A DNA stretch of 35,534 nucleotides from a virus (IMGVR_UViG_3300025536_000008:1-35534); one strand, 5' to 3'; numbered from the stretch's first letter, positions 128 through 19,288 are shown. Made by a program: numbers and translations. The notes: generated by a model from the letters alone, not told the origin.

Positions 128-665
128 CGCCTAGAGAGGTTCTCATTTTGCCCATGTTTCCCAGCGAAGGCAGTTTTGGCGGGCGTCCTGGCAAAGTAAT
201 ACTGGTGGTTGGCACAGCAGGATTGCCTTGTGATAAAAGTTGAGCGACCGTTTGTGACGGCGGCAAGGCTGGAGGCCCGCCAATACCGCCAGTCCCCATT
301 GCACGAGGTCTATTTGGATTAGGAAGAGGAGGCGGCCTGTTGCCCATTTTGGCAGCAGATTCTTCGATTCTTTTGGACAAATCTTCCATAAGGGAAATTT
401 GTTCTGCAATCTTTGGGATTGCGAAGGAACTGCCCGCAGCGGCTCCCACAGCAGCGGCACCGGCTGCCGATCCCAACGCCACACCTAACGCATTAACTGA
501 ATCTTTTGATTTAGCTGCTGCCGATCCTAATGCGGCAATGGCAGTTGTTTTGATGTCGGAAACGGAATTATCAACAGCCAAAACTTGAGCCTTTAAGTTC
601 TTCAACTCAGAGGTATCAATTCGGACTTTTATAATAAGATCGGCAAGTGTGTTGAACGAAAGCAT
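1..665 (-). CDS. Tape measure protein, N-terminal part. The gene starts at ATG 665..663, runs off the window start, and continues at 35407 down to 34108. Total is about 654 aa.
   Basis: Manual translation of the minus strand from 665 gives MLSFNTLADLIIKVRIDTSELKNLKAQVLAVDNS...GSAAGAAAVGAAAG...LSALGLGRFAGLF. This is in frame with the listed ORF 34108..35526 (position 119 = 35526, and 665-119 is divisible by 3). The ORF track misses it because the window edge cuts it. It lies directly downstream of the G/G-T chaperone genes. Confidence 0.85.
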   Translation of the reverse strand, partial: MLSFNTLADLIIKVRIDTSELKNLKAQVLAVDNSVSDIKTTAIAALGSAAAKSKDSVNALGVALGSAAGAAAVGAAAGSSFAIPKIAEQISLMEDLSKRIEESAAKMGNRPPPLPNPNRPRAMGTGGIGGPPALPPSQTVAQLLSQGNPAVPTTSITLPGRPPKLPSLGNMGKMRTSLGGTALSALGLGRFAGLFAVLSTSTLGWGAAIAVLVGSLMKALK

Positions 666-673
666 ATTGCTAT

Positions 674-1314
674 TTAGACAAGCCCATTAGCTTCTTTTTG
701 CCTTTTCGCCTTGAGTTCTCGTGCCTTCTTGAGATTGCTGGAATAATCATTGGCATTGCCCGACCAATTAAGCCAGTAAATTTGAGGCATCGTCAAGGCA
801 TTGATGACATCTGGCCCGACCCCTTCTTTCCATGCCTTTTGATAATCCTTTATCAATTTGTCGCTGTCTGACAATAACTGTCTCTTAGGACTTGTAGCTG
901 ATTTTTTTTTACGTCATCGTCGTCTCCATTGTAGATCGACGACAGCAAGATGATGACTTCGTTCATTTTGCCCAGATCAACAAAACTAAAAGCATCAACT
1001 TGTTCTCTGGTCACGTCCTTGTGTCTATGACGCAAAGACAAGAATACCACTTCTACAATTCCTTCTAGAGTGGCTATGCCGTCCTGAAAAGATTGGTCTT
1101 CGAGACTTACTCGCTTGGCAGAACATTCTTTGAGTTCGGCCCTGAGTAAATCCGCAGGGATGTCCCCAAGTTTTTTCAAAGTGTAATAACTGTGAAATTG
1201 AGCGAATCGAAGTAAATCACCAAGATCGCTTTTTGTGAGTGGGCTTAGTTCCCAGGTTTTGTCTCCGAGTTTATACAGCACTGGAGAAGCTGTGAGATCG
1301 CTTAACGGGTTCAT
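674..1314 (-). CDS. Tail assembly chaperone G-T fusion, made by programmed -1 frameshifting at the A9 run (902..910).
   Basis: Zero frame reads GAC GTA AAA AAA AAT CAG. The -1 frame reads TGA CGT AAA AAA AAA TCA GCT ACA AGT CCT AAG AGA CAG TTA TTG TCA GAC and continues into the listed 674..874 ORF (SDSDKLIKDYQKAW...). The -1 frame opens exactly at the A run. Confidence 0.75.
853..1314 (-). CDS. Tail assembly chaperone (gpG-like, zero-frame product).
   Basis: 153-aa acidic protein between the major tail gene and the tape measure gene. It ends 48 nt after an A9 slippery run, and a -1 frame ORF overlaps its end. Confidence 0.8.
   Translation of the reverse strand: MNPLSDLTASPVLYKLGDKTWELSPLTKSDLGDLLRFAQFHSYYTLKKLGDIPADLLRAELKECSAKRVSLEDQSFQDGIATLEGIVEVVFLSLRHRHKDVTREQVDAFSFVDLGKMNEVIILLSSIYNGDDDDVKKNQLQVLRDSYCQTATN
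902..910 (-). promoter_or_regulatory. Slippery sequence A AAA AAA (nine A on the minus strand) for the G/G-T -1 ribosomal frameshift.
   Basis: Nine T on the plus strand at 902..910. This is the only slippery heptamer between the -1 frame upstream stop (about 914..916) and the zero-frame stop (853..855). Confidence 0.7.
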
Positions 1315-1404
1315 ATTCTATGATAGTGGACCAATAAAAAATCCTCCATGATCTACACAGACCAAGAAGGATTTTTACTAGCTCAGGATGCAGGAAAAAC
1401 CAGA

Positions 1405-1857
1405 TTAGAAGAAGGCGTCACCACACAAATTATCGCAATGACCCGTCTCGGAGCATTCGTTGAGGACAGTATATGGACCATCACTCTTCCAGTTGCAAAC
1501 ATATCCCAATGCGCCATCTAGACTGTGGGTATATGCCACGCTGGTAATGACTGCATTAGGAACTTGGAAATTACACAGACTGTTTTCGCAGTTTGTCGCC
1601 TGCAAAGCCAAATAAACGCAAGAACCAGATCGAAGCTGAGGCGGCTGGGTAATGATGTCCGAATCCCAAAGGGCGGTAAAAGAGCCAGTTGCTTGTCTAC
1701 GACCCGTGATTAGCTTGCCGTAGCCGTTGCTTGATTTGTGAGTAGTGTCTATTTCACTAGCTTCATCATTAGCCGTCCATTCTTGAACGTGCATTGTATA
1801 GGTTTCGACATCGTTTGTCAGTATAACATCGCCTGAAATCCCAGCAAAAAACGCCAT
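1405..1857 (-). CDS. Major tail (tube) protein candidate.
   Basis: 150-aa beta-rich protein immediately upstream of the G/G-T pair. GGAGA lies 6 nt before ATG 1857 (MAFFAGISGDV...). Function is assigned by synteny only. Confidence 0.6.
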   Translation of the reverse strand: MAFFAGISGDVILTNDVETYTMHVQEWTANDEASEIDTTHKSSNGYGKLITGRRQATGSFTALWDSDIITQPPQLRSGSCVYLALQATNCENSLCNFQVPNAVITSVAYTHSLDGALGYVCNWKSDGPYTVLNECSETGHCDNLCGDAFF

Positions 1858-1933
1858 AGTTATCTCCATTGTCCTGATTGAACATTTGATCTAGAATATG
1901 TAGTCGCTTAGAAAAGAATTTTTGGAGATCAAA

Positions 1934-2677
1934 ATGCCCAAGATCAAATTTATTGAATATCGAGGCGAATCTAGAACAATCAGAGATTGGGCAAAATTAA
2001 AGGGCATCAAGCCTGCCACAATTGCCTATAGATTAAGAAATGGCTGGCCGATAGAAGATGCCTTAAATCTGGACTTGCACTCAGGAAAAAAGATGAAGCA
2101 TGGAAACTGGAAATTTCATCGAAAAGAATATAAGACTTGGCATGGAATGTTGGAAAGATGCACCGATCCAGAGCGATACCATTGCCAAAAAGGCATCAAA
2201 GTCCTATACAAGGATTTCGATGAATTCTTTCAGGACGTTGGTTCCTCACCCAGCCCTAGACATCAAATAGACAGAATTGATAATGATGGTCACTACGAAA
2301 AGGGGAATTGCCGCTGGGCAACGGCAAAACAAAATAATGATAATAGAAGCAACACTGTCATCGTAACCTATGGAGGAATTACGAAACTTTTAGTCGAATG
2401 GGCAAAAGAGCTTAATCTTAATTACATGACTACATTAAATCGTTTTAACAAGGGTTGGCCTCTAGAAAAAGTATTTGCGCCTAGAATGACGATTAAAGAC
2501 CCACTTGTCACATTTCATGGAGAAACAAAGACCATTGCACAATGGGCCAAGGAAAGAGGAATTCATTATGTAACTCTAAGAACTCGATTGTTGCGATATG
2601 GCTGGTCAGTCGAAGACGCCATGAATCAAAAACTAATTCAAGGTCAAAAACATCACAAACACGGCAACTCTTCCTGA
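1934..2677 (+). CDS. Free-standing HNH-family homing endonuclease with three HTH (NUMOD1/IENR-like) repeats.
   Basis: Nuclease motif HQIDRIDNDGHYEKGNCRWATAKQNNDNR. Three repeats of the W(A)KxxGIxxxTxxxRLxxGW type (TIRDWAKLKGIKPATIAYRLRNGWPIEDAL, LVEWAKELNLNYMTTLNRFNKGWPLEKVF, IAQWAKERGIHYVTLRTRLLRYGWSVEDAM). It lies on the opposite strand to the flanking tail genes. GGAGA precedes ATG 1934. Confidence 0.8.
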   Translation: MPKIKFIEYRGESRTIRDWAKLKGIKPATIAYRLRNGWPIEDALNLDLHSGKKMKHGNWKFHRKEYKTWHGMLERCTDPERYHCQKGIKVLYKDFDEFFQDVGSSPSPRHQIDRIDNDGHYEKGNCRWATAKQNNDNRSNTVIVTYGGITKLLVEWAKELNLNYMTTLNRFNKGWPLEKVFAPRMTIKDPLVTFHGETKTIAQWAKERGIHYVTLRTRLLRYGWSVEDAMNQKLIQGQKHHKHGNSS

Positions 2678-3111
2678 GTCTTCGTTAGCATAAAAGTTAA
2701 GGTTAATTGCCCTTCCCAAGAGTCACTTCCAATTGATTGACTTCGATCAGCAATTCGAGTGGCATTATGTACCCGATTGGTAATTTGTAATTGGGCGGCC
2801 CCATCCGTATACAAATCCTCTAGATTCTCAAGAACCGCCTCGACTTCTTCACGGCCTTTTCCAAAGACAAAAAAAGTTACAAAGACGTTTCTGACGGTAA
2901 TCCGCTTTCTGCCGCTCTTAGCTTCATTCAAAATTTGGGTTCTGATTTCGCTAAGAACGACGAAAGGTTTGATTCCTTGTCCAGCATTGCTCGGAAGACG
3001 ATCTCCATACATGGAGTCGTTACCAATCAAGGTGCGTAGATTGACAGCATCATTCAGTGTTGATGTCTTGTAAAGCTCTACAATCGCACCGAGTAATGAT
3101 GGAACTGCCAT
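2653..3111 (-). CDS. Tail completion / tail terminator-like protein.
   Basis: Start ATG 3111 lies 1 nt downstream of the stop codon of the upstream gene. Size (152 aa) and position in the neck module fit. The segment YGDRLPSNAGQGIKPFVVLSEI resembles tail-completion families. Motif-level only. Confidence 0.5.
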   Translation of the reverse strand: MAVPSLLGAIVELYKTSTLNDAVNLRTLIGNDSMYGDRLPSNAGQGIKPFVVLSEIRTQILNEAKSGRKRITVRNVFVTFFVFGKGREEVEAVLENLEDLYTDGAAQLQITNRVHNATRIADRSQSIGSDSWEGQLTLTFMLTKTQEELPCL

Positions 3112-3112
3112 A

Positions 3113-3706
3113 TTAGTTGAATAGAACAGCGATTCTAATGGTTTGTGAAGCTGTGCTGGCATGACTCAATTTCAAAGTCGCCACGCTAAAAGTCGCCAAG
3201 GGATTTGTAGAAGTGCCGTCCCAAATGGCAGCGGTTCTTCCAACCGGCAGAACAATTGCATACAATTCTGCATCCATACCATCGAGTAACACGAAGGTCG
3301 CTTGAACTGGAGCATAGGCTGTAAACGCCACAACATTATCTCCAGTAAGTACCAAATCCTCGACATCGACAATCATCACAGTAATTGCGGTGTCTGCGTC
3401 GGGAAAGTCGTCCCCAGAGCCGCCATCTACCGGCACGCTATTTACGGAAACGGTCCCCACGGTCACGCCTCTACGACTGCCTGTGGCCCAATAAATATCT
3501 ACCTCTGCGGCAGTCGTGATATTGTGACCGTCGCCCAGAGTGAGGATACCTGTGTCGGCATCTGTTCTGGTAGATAGAGTTCCTGCATTAGCACCAGCCA
3601 ATGTTACCTCTCTAACTTCCACAGCTTCGCTCGAAACAGTAAACGATGCAGGGAAATTTTTCCCTGCGACAGAAATTGATTCACGGACGGTCATGTCAAT
3701 AGCCAT
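3113..3706 (-). CDS. Virion structural protein of unknown role (neck module).
   Basis: 197-aa Ala/Thr/Val/Gly-rich, beta-type ORF tightly packed between adaptor and terminator genes. No recognisable motif. Confidence 0.6.
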   Translation of the reverse strand: MAIDMTVRESISVAGKNFPASFTVSSEAVEVREVTLAGANAGTLSTRTDADTGILTLGDGHNITTAAEVDIYWATGSRRGVTVGTVSVNSVPVDGGSGDDFPDADTAITVMIVDVEDLVLTGDNVVAFTAYAPVQATFVLLDGMDAELYAIVLPVGRTAAIWDGTSTNPLATFSVATLKLSHASTASQTIRIAVLFN

Positions 3707-9148: not shown

Positions 9149-9203
9149 AGTAAGACTATTTCACATCTGGTGAGGCTTTTAGTAAGACTATTTCACATCT
9201 GGT
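9140..9203. repeat. Perfect 32-bp tandem duplication (9140..9171 = 9172..9203).
   Basis: gaggcttttagtaagactatttcacatctggt occurs twice. Copy 1 contains the 3' half of the terminator stem. Copy 2 overlaps the MCP stop codon (9203..9205) by one base at 9203. Confidence 0.95.
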
Positions 9204-10399
9204 TAGCTGGACTGGTCGTCTAGAACCACAAATGGGCTTACGGTAGAAGTACCGTCTGCCAAAGTTACTGGATCGCTGAGCAAGCTCATGCCAGCAAATC
9301 GGGCAACGCCTCTGTAGACCACGCAGTCCTTCTTGAAGCTCACATGAGGAGAAGCCTCAATCGTAATGCTGCGGTTCACACCAAGAGCATAAGCCCCAAG
9401 GTCAAGCAGCAACACGTCACCTTCGGCACCAATGCCAGCAGTGTACTCGGACACTAGAACTGGATAGCCTAGCAAGTACATCTGTAGACCGTTGGCAGCA
9501 TTGGCGTTTTGAAGCCAAATGGCCTGACCCAAAGAAGACTCAAAGCCAAGCAATGAGGCCAAGTGGTATGGATGAATGACCCATGCGGCACCAGCACCAT
9601 TATTCAAACGCTTGTGAGCCGCAATCATGTTGCGGGCATCATGGAATTTGAACTGATTGCTTGTGTCACGCTGAACAGTAATGGTGGCACCATTGCCAAT
9701 AATTCCATCGCTGTTTGCGCCGTTGCCGTTCAGAATAACGTAATCCATATAGGAACTTAGGGTCTGACGGAAACCATCTACAATAACCGACTCAAGACCG
9801 ACATTGTTGTTTTGCAGAAGTTCATTGGAAACTTCGACGAAACCCATTGCCTTGTCAGCCTGGAGTTTGACTTGCTTAAAGGTAAGATTGGTGCTGTCAG
9901 TCGGCTCGGCTGCCTCGTTCACAATTCCGACAAGCAGGCCGCCATTGAAGGCAGATTCTCCACCGCCACCAGGAGTGGCGGTCTGGTCAAGAACTGGAAT
10001 ATAGGTCACATCAGTCGGCATTGCAATCTGACGGGCACGGCTATTAAGAGATTCATAGCCATCGAGCTTGAAAAGCTCATTGCTCCAAATCTCAGGCACA
10101 GTAAAACCACCGACGCCATCAGTGCTTTGCACCATGTCGGTCGTGGTTTTGAAATCATACTTGTTAGAAAGCATGTTGAAAGCCTTCTCACGAGTAGAAT
10201 TACGAGCAGTCTTGCCCACCAAGGCAAGCCATTCACCAAAGGTTCGGTCGTCGGCTGCCTTTGCTACCGCAGGCAGTCCCTTGCGAGAAAACTGAGTCTT
10301 CATCTCGGCCACAAGCTCCGATTTAAGTTCGGTCTTCAAATTTGACTTGATTTCTTCATACAAGTCTTGCTCGCTAGGAGCATTTACATTTTCAGACAT
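9203..10399 (-). CDS. Major capsid protein, HK97 fold, with an N-terminal delta/scaffold-like coiled coil.
   Basis: It follows the prohead protease. N-terminal SEQDLYEEIKSNLKTELKSELVAEMKTQF, then GGFTVPEIWSNELFKL and a long beta-rich body typical of HK97-type MCPs. No separate scaffold gene is present. Confidence 0.85.
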   Translation of the reverse strand: MSENVNAPSEQDLYEEIKSNLKTELKSELVAEMKTQFSRKGLPAVAKAADDRTFGEWLALVGKTARNSTREKAFNMLSNKYDFKTTTDMVQSTDGVGGFTVPEIWSNELFKLDGYESLNSRARQIAMPTDVTYIPVLDQTATPGGGGESAFNGGLLVGIVNEAAEPTDSTNLTFKQVKLQADKAMGFVEVSNELLQNNNVGLESVIVDGFRQTLSSYMDYVILNGNGANSDGIIGNGATITVQRDTSNQFKFHDARNMIAAHKRLNNGAGAAWVIHPYHLASLLGFESSLGQAIWLQNANAANGLQMYLLGYPVLVSEYTAGIGAEGDVLLLDLGAYALGVNRSITIEASPHVSFKKDCVVYRGVARFAGMSLLSDPVTLADGTSTVSPFVVLDDQSS

Positions 10400-10532
10400 T
10401 TTGTTTTTACCTTGAAAAAGAGTTAGAATCACTCTTCTGCCGACTTTTCAGATGTGTGAATCTCCAGCTTTTCGCCTGATCCCTCACTCGTCGTTTGTCT
10501 TTGAAGCTGAAAGATATGTAGACATGAACAAT

Positions 10533-10690: not shown

Positions 10691-11464
10691 CTATTTCTTC
10701 AAAATCTTTCTTAGAATATCACTCTTGCTGACCTGCACAACTTTCGGCGTCATTCCGCACTCTTCCGCTGTCCATGACCAAAAGGATTCATCTTCTGGCT
10801 CCTCTAAACCAAGCGTCTGATAGATGTCAGGACCAAAAATCCCCTTACTCACACTCTCTACCAAGGCTGTTGGATTGCTCTGGACAGTGCATAGAGAGAT
10901 TTCTAAAAGGGTCGATTCACGTATTACTCTCCTCACGGAGGCAAGTTCTGGGCGCAAAGTAATCTCTTTCTCAGTTGGCGGCCCTTGTTTCGTGGTAATA
11001 AAACCAATAGAAACGCCTCGAATGACTTTCTGTTGAGTCAAAGCAAAAATCTCCGCAGGGAACCAATTCCCTTGCCAATCGGCAGGCTGCTTAGCAAATT
11101 GAACTAAGGCTTTGAGGGCGTTCCCATCTAGCTTGTTCCACAAGGCTCGCCCTATTGGGGGACGAGAATAATCGTGTGCCCAGGCAATGACAGGGTTTTT
11201 ATTGAATTGACCCCTTTTGATCCCATCTACCAGGACGACTTCTCCATCTCGATCAATGTCAGTGGTTGAAGCGGTCAGTAATGCCTGCATTGGATCAAGG
11301 CCATCTTTGACCTCGATTTCATCAGAGAAAAACTTTCGCTCGAATGTCGCCTCCGGGTCTTTTAGGAGTTCTTCAATTTCCTCAGCAGCTTCCTTGCTGC
11401 GGACAGGAATATCCAGCACCGAAGTGCAGAAACCTTTTTTCTCGTACCAATTGTGGATCGTCAT
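10691..11464 (-). CDS. Prohead maturation protease, HK97 (S78) family.
   Basis: Motifs DRDGEVVLVDGI, NPVIAWAHDYSRPPIGRAL, VRGVSIGF and LLEISLCTVQSNPTALV. Positioned between portal and MCP. Confidence 0.8.
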   Translation of the reverse strand: MTIHNWYEKKGFCTSVLDIPVRSKEAAEEIEELLKDPEATFERKFFSDEIEVKDGLDPMQALLTASTTDIDRDGEVVLVDGIKRGQFNKNPVIAWAHDYSRPPIGRALWNKLDGNALKALVQFAKQPADWQGNWFPAEIFALTQQKVIRGVSIGFITTKQGPPTEKEITLRPELASVRRVIRESTLLEISLCTVQSNPTALVESVSKGIFGPDIYQTLGLEEPEDESFWSWTAEECGMTPKVVQVSKSDILRKILKK

Positions 11465-11755: not shown

Positions 11756-12139
11756 CTACATGGGAGCTTCTAGAATAGCTCTAACTTGATTCAATGTTTG
11801 TTGTGCCGCAGGAGTTAGGAATTGTCTATTCAAACCCAACGGGTTTTCTAGATATTTAGCATAGTAAACATTGGTCCCTATGCGGCCAACAATATCATTT
11901 CCCTCTTGAGAAACTTGGGTCGCAATAGATCGCCTTAGCTGTCCAGTATCTAATCTAGGTGGTTCTCCTGGCAAACTACGAATCTTCTTTTTGCCACCCT
12001 TGGGGCCGATTGTAACTCCAACCTTCGTCGAGATCAGACTCACAACCTTGTTGCGAACGATCCTAACGACCTTTTCCATGCGATGACGCAATTCGGCTTC
12101 AATCAATTCAATTGGTTGATTGTGAAAATTTGTTGTCAT
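11756..12139 (-). CDS. HK97 gp10-like head-tail joining protein, in an unusual position.
   Basis: Signature SLPGEPPRLDTGQLRRSI ... GTNVYYAKYLENP ... RQFL. ATG 12139 overlaps the portal stop (ATGA). Confidence 0.7.
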   Translation of the reverse strand: MTTNFHNQPIELIEAELRHRMEKVVRIVRNKVVSLISTKVGVTIGPKGGKKKIRSLPGEPPRLDTGQLRRSIATQVSQEGNDIVGRIGTNVYYAKYLENPLGLNRQFLTPAAQQTLNQVRAILEAPM

Positions 12140-14052
12140 ACAATTTCTCTCAACACACAATAGCACCCAGGATGAAGTGGTGGCAATTCATCATCTAGAC
12201 TCAATTCTGTCCCATCCAAAGGCTCACACAGAGGGCACGGAGCGTCGGTGCAAGTCCAAATAAATCCTTTAACCACGTCGCTCTCTATGGCACTCATTCT
12301 AAGTCCCTCATTGAATGCACGGGAACTCTCCGTCTTGGCAATCAATTCTGCCCGATAGGTACTAGCATTCTCAAAAATATCCTTAATCCTAGCAGTCAGT
12401 TCCCGAATGCCTGCCCCCTGCTCTAAGCCACTGGCAATCGCTTCACGAGTCAAGGCCAATGCCTCATCGACAGACTTTACAGTCGTGTCAAGAGTGGATT
12501 GAGACAGTCGCAAGGCATGTTCGGCTGCAAAAATGGCGGCATGGTCATTGAAAACATTCACTACATCGGGGTTAGCTCCAACCCGCACCAAAAGTTTTTG
12601 TCCGCTATTCTTGACAATGGCCTCTACCATTGGCTGCACGTCGTCTGCCAAGTCTTTAGGCCAATTTTTCATTGGTTTGAACTTGGTTGGAATGGTTTTT
12701 ATTTCAAGTTTGTCGAAGGTTTTTTCGATACTGTTGATTACGCTGTCTTTCCAAATGCCAAAATGTTTGGCACATATCTCCTGAATCTTTTTCTTTTGTG
12801 GAATGTAAGGAGCTTTCGGATACTTTTTGATCTCTTTTATCTCAGGCACGATTGAATTTTGCTCGACCTGAATATCACCCAAAGGCTCGTATCCAATTTG
12901 CGCCCGTGCCTCATCTACGGTCAGGATATTCGCACCTACAGCTTGAACCAAGTATGCCATCTGTTCTGCTTCCATCTCTGGAGATGGATCGTCAAAACAA
13001 AAGAACATATTCTCTGTGTCTTCAAATAAACTCAAGAACTGAGTGTTCAGAAAGTCCTGAATATCGAGCAGGCGAGGCATAATGGCACCGTCTACCCATT
13101 CCTTGAGAGCCACCTTATAGCTTGCCAAAGAAGTATTTTCTGCTCCTCGAAGAATCATCAAGGGCATAGAGAAGGCTTGAGCTATGTTCTCTTCTGCTCG
13201 TTCACTGATCTCAATGGCACCCAAATCAGCAGGCTTCCAGTTCATTATTGTGGCAGCCATGTCCTGGTCGGTGTACATGATGTCTTCGCCAGATAAGAAA
13301 GCACGCCATCTCCTTTTAAGTCTTTCAACTTCATCCTCGCCAACATCAGCGAACTCGCCCCTTGGGGAGAGCATCACAGCAGGACGAGGTTTCATTGCGG
13401 CGATGAGAGTCGCAAAAATCTTGTCCTGCAAAAGCAAGTTCTGGAAGCAAGACATTGCGGGACTTGTCCCTGGATAACTGTTATAGGGGTAAATCAGATT
13501 CTCAGTAGCCAGCACGAGCATCTGATTATCCCCGGCCTCTTGACCAAGAGGATAGATTTTGTCTGTGCCATATTCCCAATGAAGAATTAACCCATTGATT
13601 CCTCTGCGTGGCGTCACAACATTCGGTGGCAACACATAGAAATCGGCATTGTCTCGATGATTGATATAGGCAATTCCGCTCATATCCAAGTAAAGCTGGA
13701 CATAACTAATCAAAGCCCTGCCGGTCATGTAAGGATTAGGTTTTTTAAGAGCGGTCAATGAGTCGTGCGAAGTGACTTCTTCCACATTCTCATTACCGCT
13801 GACCATATACTTCTGTCGCATCTGTTGGACATATTTCTTCTTGTTTGGAGTCAAAGATTTGGTCTGATCTCCCGAGGTTGTGCGATAGAGTCTCAAAGTG
13901 GCGGAACTTACTTTGTCGGCGGTTTTTTTGGCACAAGAATAAATGGTACTTTTATACGAGGATAAAAGTGCATTGATATTCATGCCTGCACAGTTCTGTC
14001 CACCGCCAAAAGAAGTTTCCACATTCAATGATTTTTTCTTGTATTTTGTCAT
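12136..14052 (-). CDS. Portal protein fused to a Mu F / SPP1 gp7-like minor head protein domain.
   Basis: The N-terminal ~400 aa is portal-like (LKKPNPYMTGRALISYVQLYLDMSGIAYI). The C-terminus has the MuF signature TESSRAFNEG...CPLCEPLDGTELSLDDELPPLHPGCYCVL. ATG 14052 overlaps the upstream stop (TAATG). Confidence 0.8.
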   Translation of the reverse strand: MTKYKKKSLNVETSFGGGQNCAGMNINALLSSYKSTIYSCAKKTADKVSSATLRLYRTTSGDQTKSLTPNKKKYVQQMRQKYMVSGNENVEEVTSHDSLTALKKPNPYMTGRALISYVQLYLDMSGIAYINHRDNADFYVLPPNVVTPRRGINGLILHWEYGTDKIYPLGQEAGDNQMLVLATENLIYPYNSYPGTSPAMSCFQNLLLQDKIFATLIAAMKPRPAVMLSPRGEFADVGEDEVERLKRRWRAFLSGEDIMYTDQDMAATIMNWKPADLGAIEISERAEENIAQAFSMPLMILRGAENTSLASYKVALKEWVDGAIMPRLLDIQDFLNTQFLSLFEDTENMFFCFDDPSPEMEAEQMAYLVQAVGANILTVDEARAQIGYEPLGDIQVEQNSIVPEIKEIKKYPKAPYIPQKKKIQEICAKHFGIWKDSVINSIEKTFDKLEIKTIPTKFKPMKNWPKDLADDVQPMVEAIVKNSGQKLLVRVGANPDVVNVFNDHAAIFAAEHALRLSQSTLDTTVKSVDEALALTREAIASGLEQGAGIRELTARIKDIFENASTYRAELIAKTESSRAFNEGLRMSAIESDVVKGFIWTCTDAPCPLCEPLDGTELSLDDELPPLHPGCYCVLREIV

Positions 14053-14237
14053 TACCAAATCCTTAAATGTCCCACAACCTCGAAGAGAGCGTCATTATTG
14101 ACATTACACCAACTATCAGCTTTTTGTTTCTTATCTATTGGTTTCGGCTGGGCTTTTGGCTTTTTCCCACGTTTCTTGGTCTTGGGTTCAGGAGGCTGTC
14201 CCTTCTTCCACAATCTATCAAATATCTCCGTCATCAT
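14052..14237 (-). CDS. Small basic protein (61 aa).
   Basis: Lys/Pro-rich ORF bridging TerL and the portal. It overlaps both neighbours. Confidence 0.4.
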   Translation of the reverse strand: MMTEIFDRLWKKGQPPEPKTKKRGKKPKAQPKPIDKKQKADSWCNVNNDALFEVVGHLRIW

Positions 14238-16365
14238 CTCTCCTCATTGCTTGTTTACGTTCTAGATGTAGAACAAGGTAGCGCAATCCGTCGCAGTTCT
14301 TCACCAGAATATCATTGGCATAATACTCATCACCATCTCCGACAGTGATGTTATATACATCATGCCGACTTTTTAGGTGTTCGATTTTGATGATATGCGG
14401 CATCTGGGCCTCGCCTACGGTGTCTTGCTTTGCAATTTTGATGGCAGAATCTTCCATGCTTGCTATGAGCTTCGTATGTTCTTCCACAGCAATCACATTG
14501 TTTGGAGGTAATTGTTTTTCCGAAGCGACATTTTTTGGCATGTTTTCGGTGCCATTCCAGTCCTGCTGCCGAGCCGTGCCATTTAGAAGCAAGCGGACGG
14601 ATTGTTTCGAGGAGTTTCCGATTGGCACGCTTCTGCTTTTCGGTTCGGGGATGTCTTCTGAAATGCTCCGTGGGACTAACGCATTCGAGATTTTGGATTG
14701 AATTGTTTGCTGGGTCGCCGTCCTTGTGATGAATATGCCATCCTTTGGGGATGATCCCTCGCTTTTCTTCCCAGACAACCCGATGTAAATATCTTGGTTT
14801 TCCTTGCCAGCCTTCGGATTTGAAGTATTTTCTGTCAGCCTCGTTTGAAGACTCTGGGTAACGTCTGTATTTGACGCCTTTGTATATTTTTGTTTCACGC
14901 ATACTCTATCATAGTATCGCAAAGCATCAATTCGACAGAAATCTTTACCTTCTGCCCAAACAGGATGGTCGGGGGTGCCCGTCAGGGTGTGACCATTTGA
15001 CAAAGTAATTTGCATTACACAAGCATTTTTTTGAGTAAGAGCTATTGCAGTGATGGGCTTGTAGCCACTTCTTGTTAAGGCGAGGTCATGCAATTTCAAA
15101 TCAACAAGGGTTTTTGGTCCTTCAATTGTGTCAATCAGAGTTTCTCCAATAAGACAGGCGTGGTCTTTTTGCCCATTCATCGGCTTATTTCCCACTGCAT
15201 TCCCATCCTCGCCAGTCAAATATCTATACGTCAAAAATTCGCTGTGTAAGTTCGGACAACATTCAGTCACAATCTTCAATTTGCCACGTCTTATTCGAGC
15301 TTGTACCAAACTAATTCCCAAAGAAATGCTCTCCGGCCCCTTGAGTGCTGGCTTGGCATTCACGCCTAATTTTCTTAAAGCAAGAATTGCATTCTTTTGA
15401 TGATCGCAAGTCCACAACCTGATTTTATCGCCAGTAGCTTCCTTAAATTTCTTCTCAAAGCCAGTAATGCTGTCAAACAACTCTAGAATGTCACCAGGAG
15501 CATAATGCTCGTGAATTATCCACAGGCAGTCATCGTAATCAATTAGCCCTAAGAGCCAACAATGAGGGTCGGTGCCGCCAAAATCTACCGCCGCTACATA
15601 TTGTGCTGCCTCTGGCAACCCTTCGTCAGGCATATCCACAAAACAACTCTTCCCATTGGCATCTACTGGATCATAAACCAACCCTGGCATCTTCGAGAAT
15701 TTGCCCTCGAAATTCATCTCAAATTCCCAAGTTGGCATTTCCTTTCTAGCCTTCTCGATGAGTGTCATATCGCTGGCTGGATTTAGCCAGGAAGGAAAGA
15801 CTCGATAGAAATAATTTTTATCACCGTTATCAGCAGCAGCCATTATTTTTGTTTTAAGCCAATCATACTTCATATAAGGTGTTGAACTCAAAAAGATTCT
15901 GGCTCCTTTGCGATTAACTAATCTTCCCTCGACTGTTTTGAGCGTCGAATAGGGACAGTTCCCACATTCGTCTATCCACCCTGAGTCGGCTTTTATTCCT
16001 TCATAATCCGCTTCTGCGGATCGGAAGTAGATAACACCACCACCAGGGAGTTTATACTCGTGCAAGCCGCTCGTGCCTTGATAAGCAGTCCCTTGTAAAG
16101 TCTTCTCTAAAGCAGTTTTTGTCGCCTTTGTAACAACATCGAATGTACTGGCAACCACCAAATGTGTGCCTTTGCCCTTGAGCTTCTCTATTTCTCTGAG
16201 TTGCCATAGGGCGGCACACGCTGATTTGCCGCCATTTTTGCCTCCTATAGCGGCAATAATTCTGGCCTCTGATTGCAAACAATCAAATTGCCCCTCGTGA
16301 ACTGGAAAGTATTTGTTTGTGATGCCATTCTCATCAATGAAAAGATCGCCCCAATTCAATGTCAT
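14218..16365 (-). CDS. terL: Terminase large subunit precursor containing an intein (extein 1..403 and 691..715).
   Basis: Walker A AIGGKNGGKS, Walker B WIDECG and nuclease AVDFGGTDPHCW. The conserved C-terminal KDHA-CDGLRY motif is split by a 287-aa insert. ATG 16365 overlaps the TerS stop (ATGA). Confidence 0.9.
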   Translation of the reverse strand: MTLNWGDLFIDENGITNKYFPVHEGQFDCLQSEARIIAAIGGKNGGKSACAALWQLREIEKLKGKGTHLVVASTFDVVTKATKTALEKTLQGTAYQGTSGLHEYKLPGGGVIYFRSAEADYEGIKADSGWIDECGNCPYSTLKTVEGRLVNRKGARIFLSSTPYMKYDWLKTKIMAAADNGDKNYFYRVFPSWLNPASDMTLIEKARKEMPTWEFEMNFEGKFSKMPGLVYDPVDANGKSCFVDMPDEGLPEAAQYVAAVDFGGTDPHCWLLGLIDYDDCLWIIHEHYAPGDILELFDSITGFEKKFKEATGDKIRLWTCDHQKNAILALRKLGVNAKPALKGPESISLGISLVQARIRRGKLKIVTECCPNLHSEFLTYRYLTGEDGNAVGNKPMNGQKDHACLIGETLIDTIEGPKTLVDLKLHDLALTRSGYKPITAIALTQKNACVMQITLSNGHTLTGTPDHPVWAEGKDFCRIDALRYYDRVCVKQKYTKASNTDVTQSLQTRLTENTSNPKAGKENQDIYIGLSGKKSEGSSPKDGIFITRTATQQTIQSKISNALVPRSISEDIPEPKSRSVPIGNSSKQSVRLLLNGTARQQDWNGTENMPKNVASEKQLPPNNVIAVEEHTKLIASMEDSAIKIAKQDTVGEAQMPHIIKIEHLKSRHDVYNITVGDGDEYYANDILVKNCDGLRYLVLHLERKQAMRRDDDGDI
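14296..15156 (-). mobile_element. Intein within TerL (287 codons, Cys1 to Asn287, +1 Cys).
   Basis: Block A CLIGETLIDT, block B GHTLTGTPDHPVW, blocks F/G DVYNITVGDGDEYYANDILVKN followed by C. Coordinates were verified codon by codon (TGT at 15156..15154, AAC at 14298..14296). Confidence 0.85.
14360..14902 (-). CDS. HNH homing endonuclease encoded inside the intein in a different reading frame (+2/-1 relative to TerL).
   Basis: ATG-initiated 180-aa ORF with LHRVVWEEKRGIIPKGWHIHHKDGDPANNSIQNLECVSPTEH and a C-terminal Cys/His finger CDCCGRTYEAHSKHGRFCHQNC. The frame offset follows from the coordinates (16365 mod 3 = 0, 14902 mod 3 = 1). Confidence 0.8.
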   Translation of the reverse strand: MRETKIYKGVKYRRYPESSNEADRKYFKSEGWQGKPRYLHRVVWEEKRGIIPKGWHIHHKDGDPANNSIQNLECVSPTEHFRRHPRTEKQKRANRKLLETIRPLASKWHGSAAGLEWHRKHAKKCRFGKTITSKQCDCCGRTYEAHSKHGRFCHQNCKARHRRRGPDAAYHQNRTPKKSA

Positions 16366-16907
16366 TTGGCCTCGATTGTGAGTGGTTGTGGTTGTTTGTT
16401 TCCAACCACAAAAGCCACGCTGGCTACCGTTTGGTTTTGTTGCTCGTCCAATTCGACCAATGTTCCAGATGGGAAGAACTTCTCGAATTGAAGGAAGAAC
16501 TTCATCGCATTGCCCAAGCGACCCGAATGAATATATTCCCTCATTTCTTCATCTACTTTTGGCATTCCGTGTCGAGCAAATGCCTCGAAGAGAGTTCTTA
16601 CGGCTGCGATCCTAATCGGACCCATTTTTTTGTCGTAGTTAAAAATCGCTGTGGGAATATCGGCATCAGCCCTGGCGACGTGATCCTCTGGCAATGCTCC
16701 TACAGCCAAACATGAGCTACTGATTTTGCCGGTATAAAGAACCTGATCCATTGAGGTATATTGACCGGCATCATACTTGCCAAGCCGAGTAATCAATGTG
16801 CCCTTCTTAATGCCAAGTTCCTTGGACCACTCGGATATAGTCAGCTTCTTACCGTTGTGTTCCAAAACACGATGGTAAGGCATATTGTAATGTGTTTTCC
16901 CAGCCAT
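16362..16907 (-). CDS. Terminase small subunit candidate (N-terminal HTH).
   Basis: It lies immediately upstream of TerL and is translationally coupled to it. HTH KKLTISEWSKELGIKKGTLITRLGKY. Function is assigned by synteny. Confidence 0.55.
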   Translation of the reverse strand: MAGKTHYNMPYHRVLEHNGKKLTISEWSKELGIKKGTLITRLGKYDAGQYTSMDQVLYTGKISSSCLAVGALPEDHVARADADIPTAIFNYDKKMGPIRIAAVRTLFEAFARHGMPKVDEEMREYIHSGRLGNAMKFFLQFEKFFPSGTLVELDEQQNQTVASVAFVVGNKQPQPLTIEAK

Positions 16908-19288
16908 TAAGCCACCGTATAGAACCCAGGTCGATAACTATTGGACTCGGCCAATAACCATTCCTCACTCCTCACCAAAGAAGTGATTCTTACTTCCTGC
17001 ATCTTCCCCTCGAAATACTCCTCATTTTCTTTTCGCCCAATGTAACTTCCTGTAATACTAGGAGCCAATGAGCCATAAGGAATCTCAGTAAATCCTTCTA
17101 ATAGTCCGTCGAGATAAATCGAAATACCAACAAATGGTTCCCAAATTATCGCAATGTGATACCAACAGGTCGTCTCTAACACGGTTCTTCCCCTCACTCG
17201 ATATTCTTTGATTCCATCGGCGGTCACTACTTGCGCCCGACCCCACAGTTGTTGTCCATCTGTATGTCCAATGGCAATTTGATAACTGCTTTCATTTTCA
17301 GTTCTCCCCATTGAAAAGAAAACCTTATGGAAGTAAAGATTACTTCGTTTTGCCCACAACGACACAGTAAATGCTTGGTCATCATTCAATGAAAATTCTG
17401 GGGTGTTGATATAATCCGAGCCATCAAACAAGTTTGCCCTATAGAACAAGCCTCTGGCCCGATTTGGCGTCTTGGTGATCCATCCGCCGCCACCTTGGGC
17501 GTCATAAGCATTAGTGGTGCTATCCTTAAATTCACCCACGGTTCCATCTCCTTGTTCTAAGAGATGATAGATTGCCTCATAATCTTCATAGAGTTGATTT
17601 GGAACACTTGGTCTAATTCCGCCTCCAAAACCAAATCCGCCAGTTGGCTCAAACCAATTTTGGTCGGTAGGAGCAGTGCCGCCAAACTTAAAGCCGCCCG
17701 CTGGCATGATCCGATAAGTGATCGAACAAATGCCGTCGTCCTTAACCAAAATTGCAGCGTCATTCAATCCGCTGAATTCAAAACCACCTGACGGAATGAA
17801 GGTTTGATCTTCTTCTGTCGATGCTTCTCCACCAAGTTCAAGACCTCCAATTGGAGTCTCGTGCATTATTTTATAGGGGATTGCACTTCCGCCAAATTCA
17901 AATCCTTCGCCATCTACTGATGGAGTGTCTGTAATTGGAGCATGGCCGCCGAATTCCATTCCGCCAATAGAATGATCCGCTTCACCTGTAAATTCGATTC
18001 CTCCATCTGGATGAAAGACTTCGATTGGAGAGGCAGTTCCTCCGAATTCAAATCCTTCTCCATCGACTTCGATTGGAATTACTCTGGTTCCTGGTGCTTC
18101 GCCACTGAATTCAAATCCTCCAGATGGAGTCTCACTAATACAATCTATAGTGAGATTTAGAACTGGAGCAGTTCCATTGCCTGCCAGGAAAGCCCAGCGA
18201 TTATTTCCAGTGTCGCTACCATTGTCTTGTGTTGTGATGACAATGGCATTGCCAGAGGTCCAACCTGGACGAGTAATGATCTCTGTGATGATCGGAGAAA
18301 TATCGGGCGTGTCATAGAATTGACTGGCTTGCCAGGGCGTGGGATTCCAATCTACATAAGCGGACGTTAAGACCCTAGATTCAGCATCAGTTTCGTCTGT
18401 TGGGGCCGTTGCGTTGTCGTCTGCGAAGGCAAAAATTCTAAGTTTGATTCTGGTATCGGTCGTATCTGTTTGAAAATAAGGTTGCGCACCAGGATGTGTT
18501 CCACCGTCCCCTTTTCCTGCACTAGCTCTATTGCCAGCGCCAGAACTGTAAAGAACATAAAGAACAATGTGGTTGCCTGGGGTCCAACCGGCTCGATCAA
18601 CAATTTCTTGAATTACACTGGAGATGTCTGGAGATGTGTAATAATTGAAGGGAGGTCCAGCAGCAAATGAAGGCACAGTCCAAGAAACACTCGCACTTGT
18701 AACTGATCTTCCATCAGCATCAGTAGCAGTGGCGGGTGCGGTCGCATTATCTTCCGCCACCGCAACAATCGTAACATCTAAAGATGTTGAATTAGTTTCT
18801 TCTGCAAGAAAACTAATTCTCGTGTCACCAACAGTATCTCCTTGAGCAATGTAAACATCTTTATATCTCAAGAAGCAATTTGTATTATTGCCACTGATTT
18901 TCCCAAAGCGGTCAAAATCATTAGTGGTTAAACTCCCGCCACTTACCCAATAGCCGTCATCAGCATCAGCAAAGATTATTGGATTGCCGAGGTTTATATT
19001 GGATTGTAGAGTGACTGAGGCAGTCTCAATTACATTAGGTCCGACATGAACTGGCACAAAACGAAAGAATTGCTTGGTAGGAACTCCGTAATAACCAAGT
19101 TGGAGATTAGGGATCGTGGCACCAGTATAAAAATCAGGAATGCCAGGACGCCATTCACCGTTATCCAACACATTATCAATCTGAATAGATTGAGGGTCTA
19201 TGCAAATTTCACTCGAACCACCTTTTTCAGCTAGTTCGATATTTGCAAGATAAGAGAGTTCGGAACCAAGACGGCCAGTAAATGTCAT
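16907..19288 (-). CDS. Large repeat protein with a C-terminal LamG/concanavalin-like domain. Probably a fibre or receptor-binding protein.
   Basis: It has an internal ~95-aa duplication (DNATAP...TSPDISxxIxEIxxRxGWTxGN). It has nine GGFEFGG-type repeats (aa ~385-560). The C-terminal segment FDGSDYINTPEFSLNDDQAFTVSLWAKRSN...ISIYLDGLL is typical of LamG_3-like domains. Its stop overlaps the TerS ATG (TAATG). Confidence 0.7.
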   Translation of the reverse strand: MTFTGRLGSELSYLANIELAEKGGSSEICIDPQSIQIDNVLDNGEWRPGIPDFYTGATIPNLQLGYYGVPTKQFFRFVPVHVGPNVIETASVTLQSNINLGNPIIFADADDGYWVSGGSLTTNDFDRFGKISGNNTNCFLRYKDVYIAQGDTVGDTRISFLAEETNSTSLDVTIVAVAEDNATAPATATDADGRSVTSASVSWTVPSFAAGPPFNYYTSPDISSVIQEIVDRAGWTPGNHIVLYVLYSSGAGNRASAGKGDGGTHPGAQPYFQTDTTDTRIKLRIFAFADDNATAPTDETDAESRVLTSAYVDWNPTPWQASQFYDTPDISPIITEIITRPGWTSGNAIVITTQDNGSDTGNNRWAFLAGNGTAPVLNLTIDCISETPSGGFEFSGEAPGTRVIPIEVDGEGFEFGGTASPIEVFHPDGGIEFTGEADHSIGGMEFGGHAPITDTPSVDGEGFEFGGSAIPYKIMHETPIGGLELGGEASTEEDQTFIPSGGFEFSGLNDAAILVKDDGICSITYRIMPAGGFKFGGTAPTDQNWFEPTGGFGFGGGIRPSVPNQLYEDYEAIYHLLEQGDGTVGEFKDSTTNAYDAQGGGGWITKTPNRARGLFYRANLFDGSDYINTPEFSLNDDQAFTVSLWAKRSNLYFHKVFFSMGRTENESSYQIAIGHTDGQQLWGRAQVVTADGIKEYRVRGRTVLETTCWYHIAIIWEPFVGISIYLDGLLEGFTEIPYGSLAPSITGSYIGRKENEEYFEGKMQEVRITSLVRSEEWLLAESNSYRPGFYTVA

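Follow-up and report, generated by a model that had tools for sequence, protein, structure and literature searches.

How can one stretch of phage DNA serve two proteins at once? This question is raised by terL, the gene of the terminase large subunit (TerL), on the viral contig IMGVR_UViG_3300025536_000008:1-35534, a metagenome assembly contig of 35,534 nucleotides (nt) that is called the window below. The gene is interrupted by an intein, and the place within the intein where an endonuclease domain normally sits in frame is occupied by a complete HNH homing-endonuclease gene, read from the same strand in a different frame. We consider it likely that tailed-phage terL harbours here a composite selfish element, in which a class-1 intein is combined with an independently translated HNH gene lying over the intein's linker in the +2 frame. 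All parts of terL and of the HNH gene are located on the minus strand.

The terL open reading frame (ORF; 14218..16365) encodes a precursor of 715 amino acids (aa), comprising an N-extein of 403 aa, an intein of 287 aa and a C-extein of 25 aa, which was recognised as a phage terminase large subunit by PHROG (phrog_2, E=3e-28) and by Pfam (Terminase_6N). When a collection of 5.8 billion proteins was searched with TerL, six homologues of 428-443 aa and 45-54% identity were obtained (P0002-P0007). They align end to end with the precursor, apart from 287 aa that are unique to the window between ..KDHA and CDGLRY, and read NHA-LDALRY without a gap at the insertion site. This alignment confirms what an earlier note, written from the sequence alone, had claimed for positions 14296-15156, namely an intein of 287 codons splitting KDHA / CDGLRY. 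The alignment and the ORF list place the ATPase and most of the nuclease domain in the N-extein (15157..16365), whose C-terminal end is ..KDHA; the C-extein (14221..14295, 25 aa) begins with Cys+1 and contains the nuclease motif CDGLRY.

The insert (14296..15156, Cys1 to Asn287) was assigned to the class-1 inteins from its position relative to the homologues, the Pfam profile, PDB matches and a structural model. Its first residue is Cys (CLIGETLIDT, block A), TGTPDH represents block B, and the end ..YANDILVKN is followed by Cys. The splicing residues C1, T61-x-x-H64, N287 and Cys+1 are present, and C1, T61, H64 and N287 are invariant in an alignment of 17 inteins. The N-terminal Hint half extends from residue 1 to about 88 (14893..15156), the C-terminal half covers 14296..14379 with blocks F/G (DVYNITVGDGDEYYANDILVKN), and between them the TerL frame encodes a linker (14380..14892, residues ~89-259) that is predicted to be unstructured and over which the HNH gene is read out of frame. 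Profile searches on both frames, which the earlier note had proposed, returned Intein_splicing for the insert (34.2-35.1 bits; gathering score 35.8) and HNH_3 for the ORF in the other frame. [quoted passage not shown] Residues 91-252 scored below 50, and a Pfam scan of the linker gave no match, in line with the claim that the linker lacks a nuclease motif. A PDB sequence search with the joined Hint halves matched only NrdJ-1 (E=1.6e-7) and gp41-1; the structures closest to the model in Foldseek were gp41-1 (6QAZ; target-normalised TM-score 0.84, probability 1.00) and also NrdJ-1. By sequence and model, the insert is predicted to be a splicing class-1 intein with a Hint fold. We infer splicing because terL is essential for a tailed phage and because records of isolated phages, described below, carry the same arrangement.

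The HNH ORF (14360..14902) encodes 180 aa, has its own ATG and stop codon and is offset by 2 nt, i.e. in the +2 frame, relative to TerL. It lies between the two Hint halves, and its stop is found about 21 codons ahead of the terminal Asn of the intein, where the earlier note had put it. That a complete, ATG-started ORF of another frame occupies the endonuclease slot is borne out by the ORF list, by the match to Pfam HNH_3 (PF13392; E=8e-18, 64 bits vs a gathering score of 24.8) and by the structural model; in addition, a PHROG HNH endonuclease family was matched with E=2e-25. HNH_3 was the only domain detected in a Pfam scan reporting matches up to E=0.1, with no match to Endonuclease_7, and a PDB sequence search with the HNH protein gave no match. 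The catalytic core comprises residues 37-84 (14651..14794; Pfam match residues 37-80), and a zinc ribbon with C136, C139, C153 and C157 is encoded at 14432..14497. In family alignments, H58, H59, N67, N71, H80, H84 and the four Cys of the zinc ribbon are invariant, irrespective of whether the genes are nested in a host ORF or free-standing.

The HNH protein was modelled with a pLDDT of 90.5. The model comprises a beta-hairpin region at the N-terminus, the HNH core, a pair of long helices and the zinc ribbon, the latter with a structural match to the zinc ribbon of YacG. The best PDB match was I-HmuI, the intron-encoded HNH homing endonuclease of Bacillus phage SPO1 (PDB 1U3E), and a beta-beta-alpha-metal fold resembling that of I-HmuI may be present. 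The match was weak (E=0.012, TM-score 0.27, 15% identity), as expected because the HNH protein is elongated and composed of several domains. Unlike the HNH protein of the window, which belongs to Pfam HNH_3, I-HmuI is encoded in an intron and has no YacG-like zinc ribbon. A second ribbon (CxxC...CSxxC) is frequent in nested and free-standing relatives; in the window about 10 residues are deleted and the stop comes earlier, so that this ribbon is lost (HNH C-terminus, 14363..14420).

The window is not an isolated case. A single distant TerL match with an intein was found (P0008, 26% identical), and this intein likewise contains a 'nonsense' linker. On the contig of P0008 (L001), which stems from an unrelated assembly and is visibly more G+C-rich than the window, an HNH ORF of 232 aa lies inside the intein in the same relative frame. 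The HNH proteins of the two loci are 35% identical over their full length (E=7e-24) and the N- and C-terminal Hint halves 36% and 52% identical, respectively; the TerL-frame linkers show no similarity. Queries taken from the TerL frame retrieved little. A pattern search with the 287-aa intein found no relatives, the patterns having come from the unconstrained linker, and a profile search with 17 TerL-frame inteins returned 13 proteins only, too few for a deep alignment. A scan of genome contigs gave two distant matches only, and blastn of terL against 50,697 phage records gave none. Relatives were retrieved when the HNH protein was used as query in place of the intein.

The HNH alignment served as the only query for a search of IMG/VR. 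Relatives are encoded in at least 343 stretches, of which the top 80 were retained; the loci were thus chosen solely by HNH similarity, and a locus was called nested if the host frame contains no stops across the HNH ORF. In 75 of these 80 loci the HNH frame lies wholly within a longer open frame of the same strand, and the spanning ORFs measure 613-1030 aa where the contig holds them complete. The relative frame is that of the window in 62 nested loci and the other one in 13. The third frame is broken in every nested locus, with open stretches of 2-56 codons, and none of the 80 best viral relatives carries an in-frame version. Each spanning ORF encodes a TerL with an intein inserted within one four-codon motif, following the pattern ..DH(x)/C[FL]..GT.I ... 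VYNL.VE..EYFANG.LV[HSK]N/[CS]D..RY (slashes mark the intein boundaries). Clustering of the HNH proteins at 50% identity gives 40 groups, with free-standing members interleaved with nested ones.

The arrangement also occurs in isolated phages. By tblastn of GenBank phage records, a hidden HNH ORF was detected under the annotated terL gene of five of them, namely Tetrasphaera phage TJE1, the Clostridioides difficile phages phiCDHM19 and phiCD119, Acinetobacter phage Highwayman and Rhodobacteraceae phage LS06-2018-MD07. In all of these terL genes the HNH is unannotated.

Across the family, the insertion point within D-H-x-x-D-x-x-R-Y shifts by one to four codons. The form DH/CxDxxRY is found in most loci, DHA/CDxxRY in the window, L001, L022 and L025, DHALD/CxRY in L017 and L035, and ..DA/CRY in L015 and Highwayman. 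The varied insertion points suggest repeated independent invasions of one short conserved DNA target. Some TerL precursors with a nested HNH (899-1030 aa; L022, L027, L040, L051-L059, L063, L067) have more than 200 extra residues after the intein; their C-exteins are far longer than the 25 aa of the window.

To see in which frame each part of the gene evolves, mismatches per TerL codon position were counted over 207 pairs of related loci. Pairwise substitution counts of this kind are not phylogenetically independent, which weakens their weight for the interpretation given here. At positions 1, 2 and 3, the values were 0.18, 0.11 and 0.48 for the N-extein, 0.22, 0.18 and 0.45 for the N-terminal Hint half, 0.11, 0.09 and 0.43 for the C-terminal Hint half and 0.20, 0.09 and 0.48 for the C-extein. 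Exteins and Hint halves thus have their mismatch peak at TerL position 3 (0.43-0.48 vs 0.09-0.22 elsewhere). For the overlap with the HNH ORF, the values were 0.17, 0.345 and 0.24 in loci with the window's relative frame and 0.36, 0.15 and 0.105 in those with the other. Here the peak moves to TerL position 2 in the former class and to TerL position 1 in the latter, which in both cases is position 3 of the HNH codons, and ordered by HNH position the mismatches follow 3 > 1 > 2. A peak at HNH position 3 means that the overlap is shaped by purifying selection on the HNH in its own frame; in the TerL frame, selection of this kind acts on TerL and on the Hint halves. Read in the TerL frame, the overlap gives no conserved protein, and it is free of stops in all nested loci. 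The earlier note had expected constraint on both frames of the overlapping segment. This holds for the HNH frame there and for the TerL frame in exteins and Hint halves; in the overlap itself the TerL frame is merely kept free of stops.

Is this openness itself selected? The earlier note had argued that a random frame stays open for 181 codons with a probability of (61/64)^181, or 2e-4. The arithmetic is correct; the null model is the wrong one. When the HNH protein was back-translated with the codon usage of the window, the TerL frame stayed open in 4.6% of the trials and contained 2.6 stops on average; after shuffling of synonymous codons it stayed open in 12% of trials. The same frame of ordinary genes of the window has 0.054 stops per codon, about 9.8 per 180 codons, with a longest open run of 107 codons. 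For the window alone, the evidence for stop avoidance is modest and suggestive. The host frame has 0 stops in nested loci, against 1-12 stops in homologues that are free-standing or fractured; any expected-versus-observed comparison of stops among nested loci is partly circular, since nested means without stops by definition, and this too counts against reading too much into it. A joint stop-avoidance probability of about 1e-106 was discounted for the same circularity and because the loci are phylogenetically non-independent. Selection for an open TerL frame is settled by the family, in which 75 of the 80 loci picked by HNH similarity alone have one alternative frame that is fully open and continuous with TerL, against the 1-12 stops of the free-standing or fractured homologues. 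Selection for the open frame, as claimed in the earlier note, therefore stands on the family-level data and not as a probability argument from a single sequence. Residue composition and codon choice of the nested HNH genes appear to be shaped by the need for an open terL.

How the HNH protein could be translated was judged from its start region. A start codon is present at the position aligned to Met1 of the window in 58 of 66 unique nested loci (ATG in 50, GTG in 8), and across the nested loci the HNH frame has a stop a few codons 5' of the start. In the window these are the stops TGA and TAG (14906..14911), which close the frame 2 and 3 codons 5' of the HNH ATG. A conserved start together with an upstream stop points to a self-contained cistron and not to a frameshift product. 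Furthermore, the mRNA structure predicted at HNH starts is weaker than in the rest of the same terL genes (-8.6 vs -10.7 kcal/mol, p=6e-4), and weak structure is usual at initiation sites. A hairpin at the start codon was considered as a family feature and rejected, the start regions being on average less structured than the rest of terL. No slippery heptamer X XXY YYZ was seen near the HNH start when the window sequence was inspected by eye. We infer that the HNH protein is made by internal initiation; low expression would suit a nuclease gene.

The element is sporadically distributed relative to its host gene. In L092 and L093, the two closest TerL relatives whose surroundings can be read, the genes follow the order of the window, TerL has no intein, and an HNH is absent from the whole contig. 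In some pairs of loci the element is far more similar than the extein; L022 and L027 share 99% identity in the HNH, 95% in Hint and 63% in the extein, and L023 and L070 share 79%, 60% and 29%, respectively.

Other states of the same family were also found. In L014 and in Lactobacillus phage CL2, terL is fractured; the N-extein with the N-terminal intein half ends in a stop and is followed by the HNH gene and by a short ORF for the C-terminal half and the C-extein. The N-terminal piece of L014 (IMGVR_UViG_3300031993_001010, 2500..3600) stops four codons into the HNH ORF, and its C-terminal intein half has its own Met (MKVKAVRYSGKTDVYN..SHN/CDSMRY). In CL2 (L087; KR905067, 506..2730), the gene annotated as 'large subunit terminase' (506..1954) ends in the N-terminal split-intein half, the HNH gene (1967..2590) comes after this piece, and the C-terminal intein half with the last TerL residues is encoded by a short ORF that is unannotated and lies in another frame (~2600..2730); this terminase would require trans-splicing. 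In L082, terL contains an in-frame mini-intein and the HNH gene lies immediately downstream of terL; in L038 and L081 the HNH gene is downstream of a terL that is intein-less. In Acinetobacter phage BP10 (L085) a free-standing HNH gene is located upstream of terS and TerL is intein-less. A member of the same HNH family, with zinc ribbon, occurs in frame with an intein in L084 (gammaproteobacterial metagenome-assembled genome (MAG), CAYIHE010000020.1, 1900..4000), in an NrdJ intein with 34% identity; the ORF, of at least 1967 aa, is class II ribonucleotide reductase-like and contains several inteins.

One HNH/Hint family is therefore found free-standing, nested in two frames, fractured, as a mini-intein with a downstream HNH, and in frame. 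Such a series of states is expected if a terL-associated free-standing HNH gene repeatedly invades inteins. The earlier note had placed the window between the canonical intein and the fractured gene; the presence of every state in one family agrees with an intermediate position, and the state need not be transitional.

BP10 and Highwayman (L089) are related phages with flanks of 92-96% nucleotide identity and different terS-terL modules. The Highwayman HNH, nested in its TerL intein, is 51% identical to that of BP10, and the nuclease gene lies at the boundary of the module exchange. The two phages were considered as a pair with and without the element and rejected as such, the terS-terL modules being different genes (27% identity). 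In many loci the N-terminal Hint half ends with ..(D)ALRYxD just ahead of the HNH start, which resembles the extein sequence DALRY after the intein; in the window, 21-nt stretches from 14903..14930 and 14275..14295 match at 15 positions. 'L..GD' is a usual Hint motif, and the ALRY repeat could be a mark of HNH entry or could have arisen by chance on top of this motif.

Taken together, we propose the following scheme for the composite element. Ribosomes would read terL through and produce the 715-aa precursor, in which the linker of about 170 residues would form an unstructured loop. The Hint halves would co-fold and splice by an acyl shift at Cys1, transfer to Cys+1 and cyclisation of Asn287, yielding a TerL of 428 aa with its nuclease motif restored. 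A minority of ribosomes would initiate at the internal ATG (14902) and produce the 180-aa I-HmuI-like HNH nuclease with its zinc ribbon. During co-infection, this nuclease would cut or nick intein-less terL alleles in or near the conserved sequence coding for DH..D..RY, and repair from the occupied allele would copy intein and HNH jointly. The arrangement may have originated when a terL-associated free-standing HNH gene invaded a mini-intein; an insertion would have survived only if the host frame stayed open across it, or if it brought in a stop and a fresh start and so gave a fractured gene. The out-of-frame state looks stable rather than transient, because in-frame versions are absent from the 80 best viral relatives and because the nested HNH is under purifying selection.

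Several points weigh against this reading. The Pfam intein score is slightly below the gathering threshold, and the window intein lacks both the penultimate His (it ends with VKN) and the block-F His. Absence of the penultimate His is frequent in the family, whose inteins end with HN, SN, KN, QN, AN or LN, and isolated phages with VSN are among these cases. The HNH of the window lacks the second zinc ribbon that many relatives possess. No Shine-Dalgarno sequence is present 5' of the HNH ATG of the window, and in the family such sequences occur in 29 of 75 loci, near chance; a scan for sigma-70 promoters stayed at the level of shuffled sequence, with none upstream of the HNH gene. A local hairpin of the window partly pairs the HNH start codon (z=-2.8).

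Some of these points would fit other explanations. The missing ribosome-binding site and promoter, the missing second ribbon and the partly paired start codon would be expected features of a decaying relic, an HNH ORF that is unexpressed or non-functional while the intein alone matters now. This is very improbable, since substitutions in the overlap follow the HNH frame (3 > 1 > 2), as under purifying selection, no catalytic or zinc-binding residue varies, whether the members are nested or free-standing, the ORF is intact in about 65 non-redundant loci representing 40 clusters at 50% identity, and start codons are conserved. Programmed ribosomal frameshifting, in which ribosomes would leave the TerL frame for that of the HNH beyond the N-terminal Hint half, maybe return to it, and thereby make a nuclease fused to intein or extein, could account for a same-strand overlap without a Shine-Dalgarno sequence before the HNH start, and how hidden HNH genes are translated was left unresolved in the ShiLan study as well (PMC11855218). 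We give it equally little credence. HNH-frame stops stand 2 and 3 codons before the ATG, no slippery heptamer is visible by eye around the start, homologous start codons are present in 58 of 66 loci, the two frame groups would require opposite shifts, and fractured and free-standing relatives express the HNH protein on its own.

Least credible of all is a sequencing or assembly artefact, in which two compensating indels would have shifted the middle of a canonical in-frame HNH intein, as the earlier note had itself considered. The fit of the HNH ORF to the endonuclease slot is indeed almost exact, the contig comes from a metagenome assembly, and an in-frame relative of the HNH family exists in the NrdJ intein of L084. 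Such an artefact is contradicted by the recurrence of the layout, which 75 of 80 independent viral contigs share with finished genomes of isolated phages, by nested ORFs with their own ATG or GTG and an upstream in-frame stop, by two relative frames that are each conserved within their group, and by the lack of any in-frame case among the 80 best relatives. It is also improbable, if marginally less so than a relic or frameshifting, that the nested HNH serves mainly as an accessory packaging nuclease, which would act with the terminase at cos sites in the manner of HK97 gp74 and reside in terL for co-expression. Free-standing members are indeed found in the packaging module, beside terS/terL or portal, and zinc-ribbon HNH nucleases beside terminase genes are a known class (PMC3592412). 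On the other hand, the closest TerL relatives with the same gene order lack any HNH, the HNH_3, I-HmuI-like domain is of the homing-endonuclease type, the HNH always accompanies a mobile intein, which occupies one motif in TerLs sharing only 20-30% identity, and in some pairs the element is more conserved than the extein.

In the window, terL has neighbours that make up a module for packaging and the head. One 640-aa ORF on the minus strand (12136..14058) encodes the portal in fusion with a Mu-F-like head-morphogenesis domain, and the same fusion is present in L092 and L093. A prohead protease (10691..11464) and the major head protein (9203..10432) are also located near terL, and a primase is encoded farther off. 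Directly upstream of a small ORF and terL lies an ORF of 793 aa (16907..19288, minus strand) with many GGFEFSG- or GEGFEFGG-like repeats, which gave no match in a PHROG search; the ORF at the equivalent position of L092 contains a Laminin_G_3 domain. The order large Laminin_G-like protein, small protein, TerL, small protein and portal/Mu-F is common to the window, L092 and L093. A protein identical to the 715-aa precursor has been deposited under a MAG labelled Simkania sp. (70.9-kb contig).

The earlier note knew of no contiguous intein with an overprinted endonuclease gene. This does not hold, as preprints of the Gogarten laboratory (2025-26) report out-of-frame endonucleases, of other nuclease families. 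Gosselin, Arsenault and Gogarten (bioRxiv 10.1101/2025.01.02.630785) described actinophage inteins with endonucleases in a separate frame, of the types antisense LAGLIDADG, antisense Vsr-like and same-strand 'frame 3' endonuclease VII-like (IPR004211), and termed these architectures rare. Most inteins of their survey carry an in-frame LAGLIDADG domain. Our case resembles theirs in that the intein is contiguous, the slot holds a same-strand out-of-frame ORF and the host-frame reading is unstructured; terminase large subunits are among the hosts of their non-canonical homing-endonuclease inteins, and their proposed origin is invasion by a free-standing endonuclease gene. It differs in the nuclease, endonuclease VII-like there and HNH_3/I-HmuI-like with a zinc ribbon here, and in breadth, with more than 70 loci, 40 HNH clusters and two relative frames here. 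In our tblastn tally, Tetrasphaera was the only actinophage host among the named organisms. A 2026 preprint reports an out-of-frame endonuclease in a cyanobacterial dnaX intein. Arsenault et al. 2025 (PMC11855218) found an out-of-frame HNH, the ShiLan element, in a phage DNA methylase, a gene without an intein. There, as in the window, the HNH ORF lies over an open host frame of the same strand and has no recognisable ribosome-binding site; unlike in the window, where conserved Hint halves flank the ORF, no splicing domain is present and the host protein is believed to accommodate the insertion as a loop.

In the fractured genes of Dassa et al. 2009 (PMC2677866), split inteins, among them the naturally split gp41-1 and NrdJ-1, are combined with a free-standing endonuclease gene of the GIY-YIG or Vsr-like type, not HNH. 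Hint halves flanking an independent endonuclease gene are common to both systems, and the halves of the window are closest to gp41-1 and NrdJ-1. In contrast to the fractured genes, the TerL frame of the window is open from 16365 to 14218 with no stop or restart in the middle, so that a single precursor and splicing in cis are predicted. Invasion of inteins by a free-standing endonuclease gene is the model of both PMC2677866 and bioRxiv 10.1101/2025.01.02.630785. Canonical HNH inteins share the Hint fold and an HNH in the slot with the window, whose HNH would be a separate polypeptide from another frame. Mycobacteriophage TerL inteins splice and carry active endonucleases (Kelley et al. 2016, PMC5050341), and all seven TerL sites described there are in the ATPase domain, unlike the present family, which sits in the C-terminal nuclease motif DH..D..RY. 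In the searchable literature, whose coverage is incomplete, we came across no account of an intein with an out-of-frame HNH_3 gene, of a TerL intein family at the nuclease motif or of an intein in TJE1, phiCDHM19 or Highwayman. The arrangement is not categorically new; it differs by nuclease family, host motif, two relative frames and a much greater breadth.

Gene callers overlook nested HNH genes because these lie under a longer ORF, and TerL precursors with a 'nonsense' linker of about 170-230 residues are deposited as ordinary terminases. With TJE1, phiCDHM19, phiCD119, Highwayman and CL2, isolated carriers are at hand in which splicing, internal initiation and homing are directly testable. 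Intein engineers may also take an interest, as the fast split inteins gp41-1 and NrdJ-1 have here natural relatives that would splice in cis and seem to cope with a long disordered insert. More speculatively, the out-of-frame state might be a stable, selected and widespread design that uncouples a low-level nuclease from the abundant TerL precursor, and the HNH/Hint family a living bridge between free-standing homing-endonuclease genes, endonuclease-bearing inteins and split inteins of the gp41-1/NrdJ-1 type; it may stem from a terL-targeting HNH that invaded a mini-intein at ..DALRYxD, a mimic of the terL target DALRY. This extended proposal is possible at best and clearly more doubtful than the composite element itself. 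The gain of endonucleases by inteins and the origin of split inteins have so far been argued mostly from isolated examples; here, all proposed stages are present in one nuclease/Hint lineage at one host motif.

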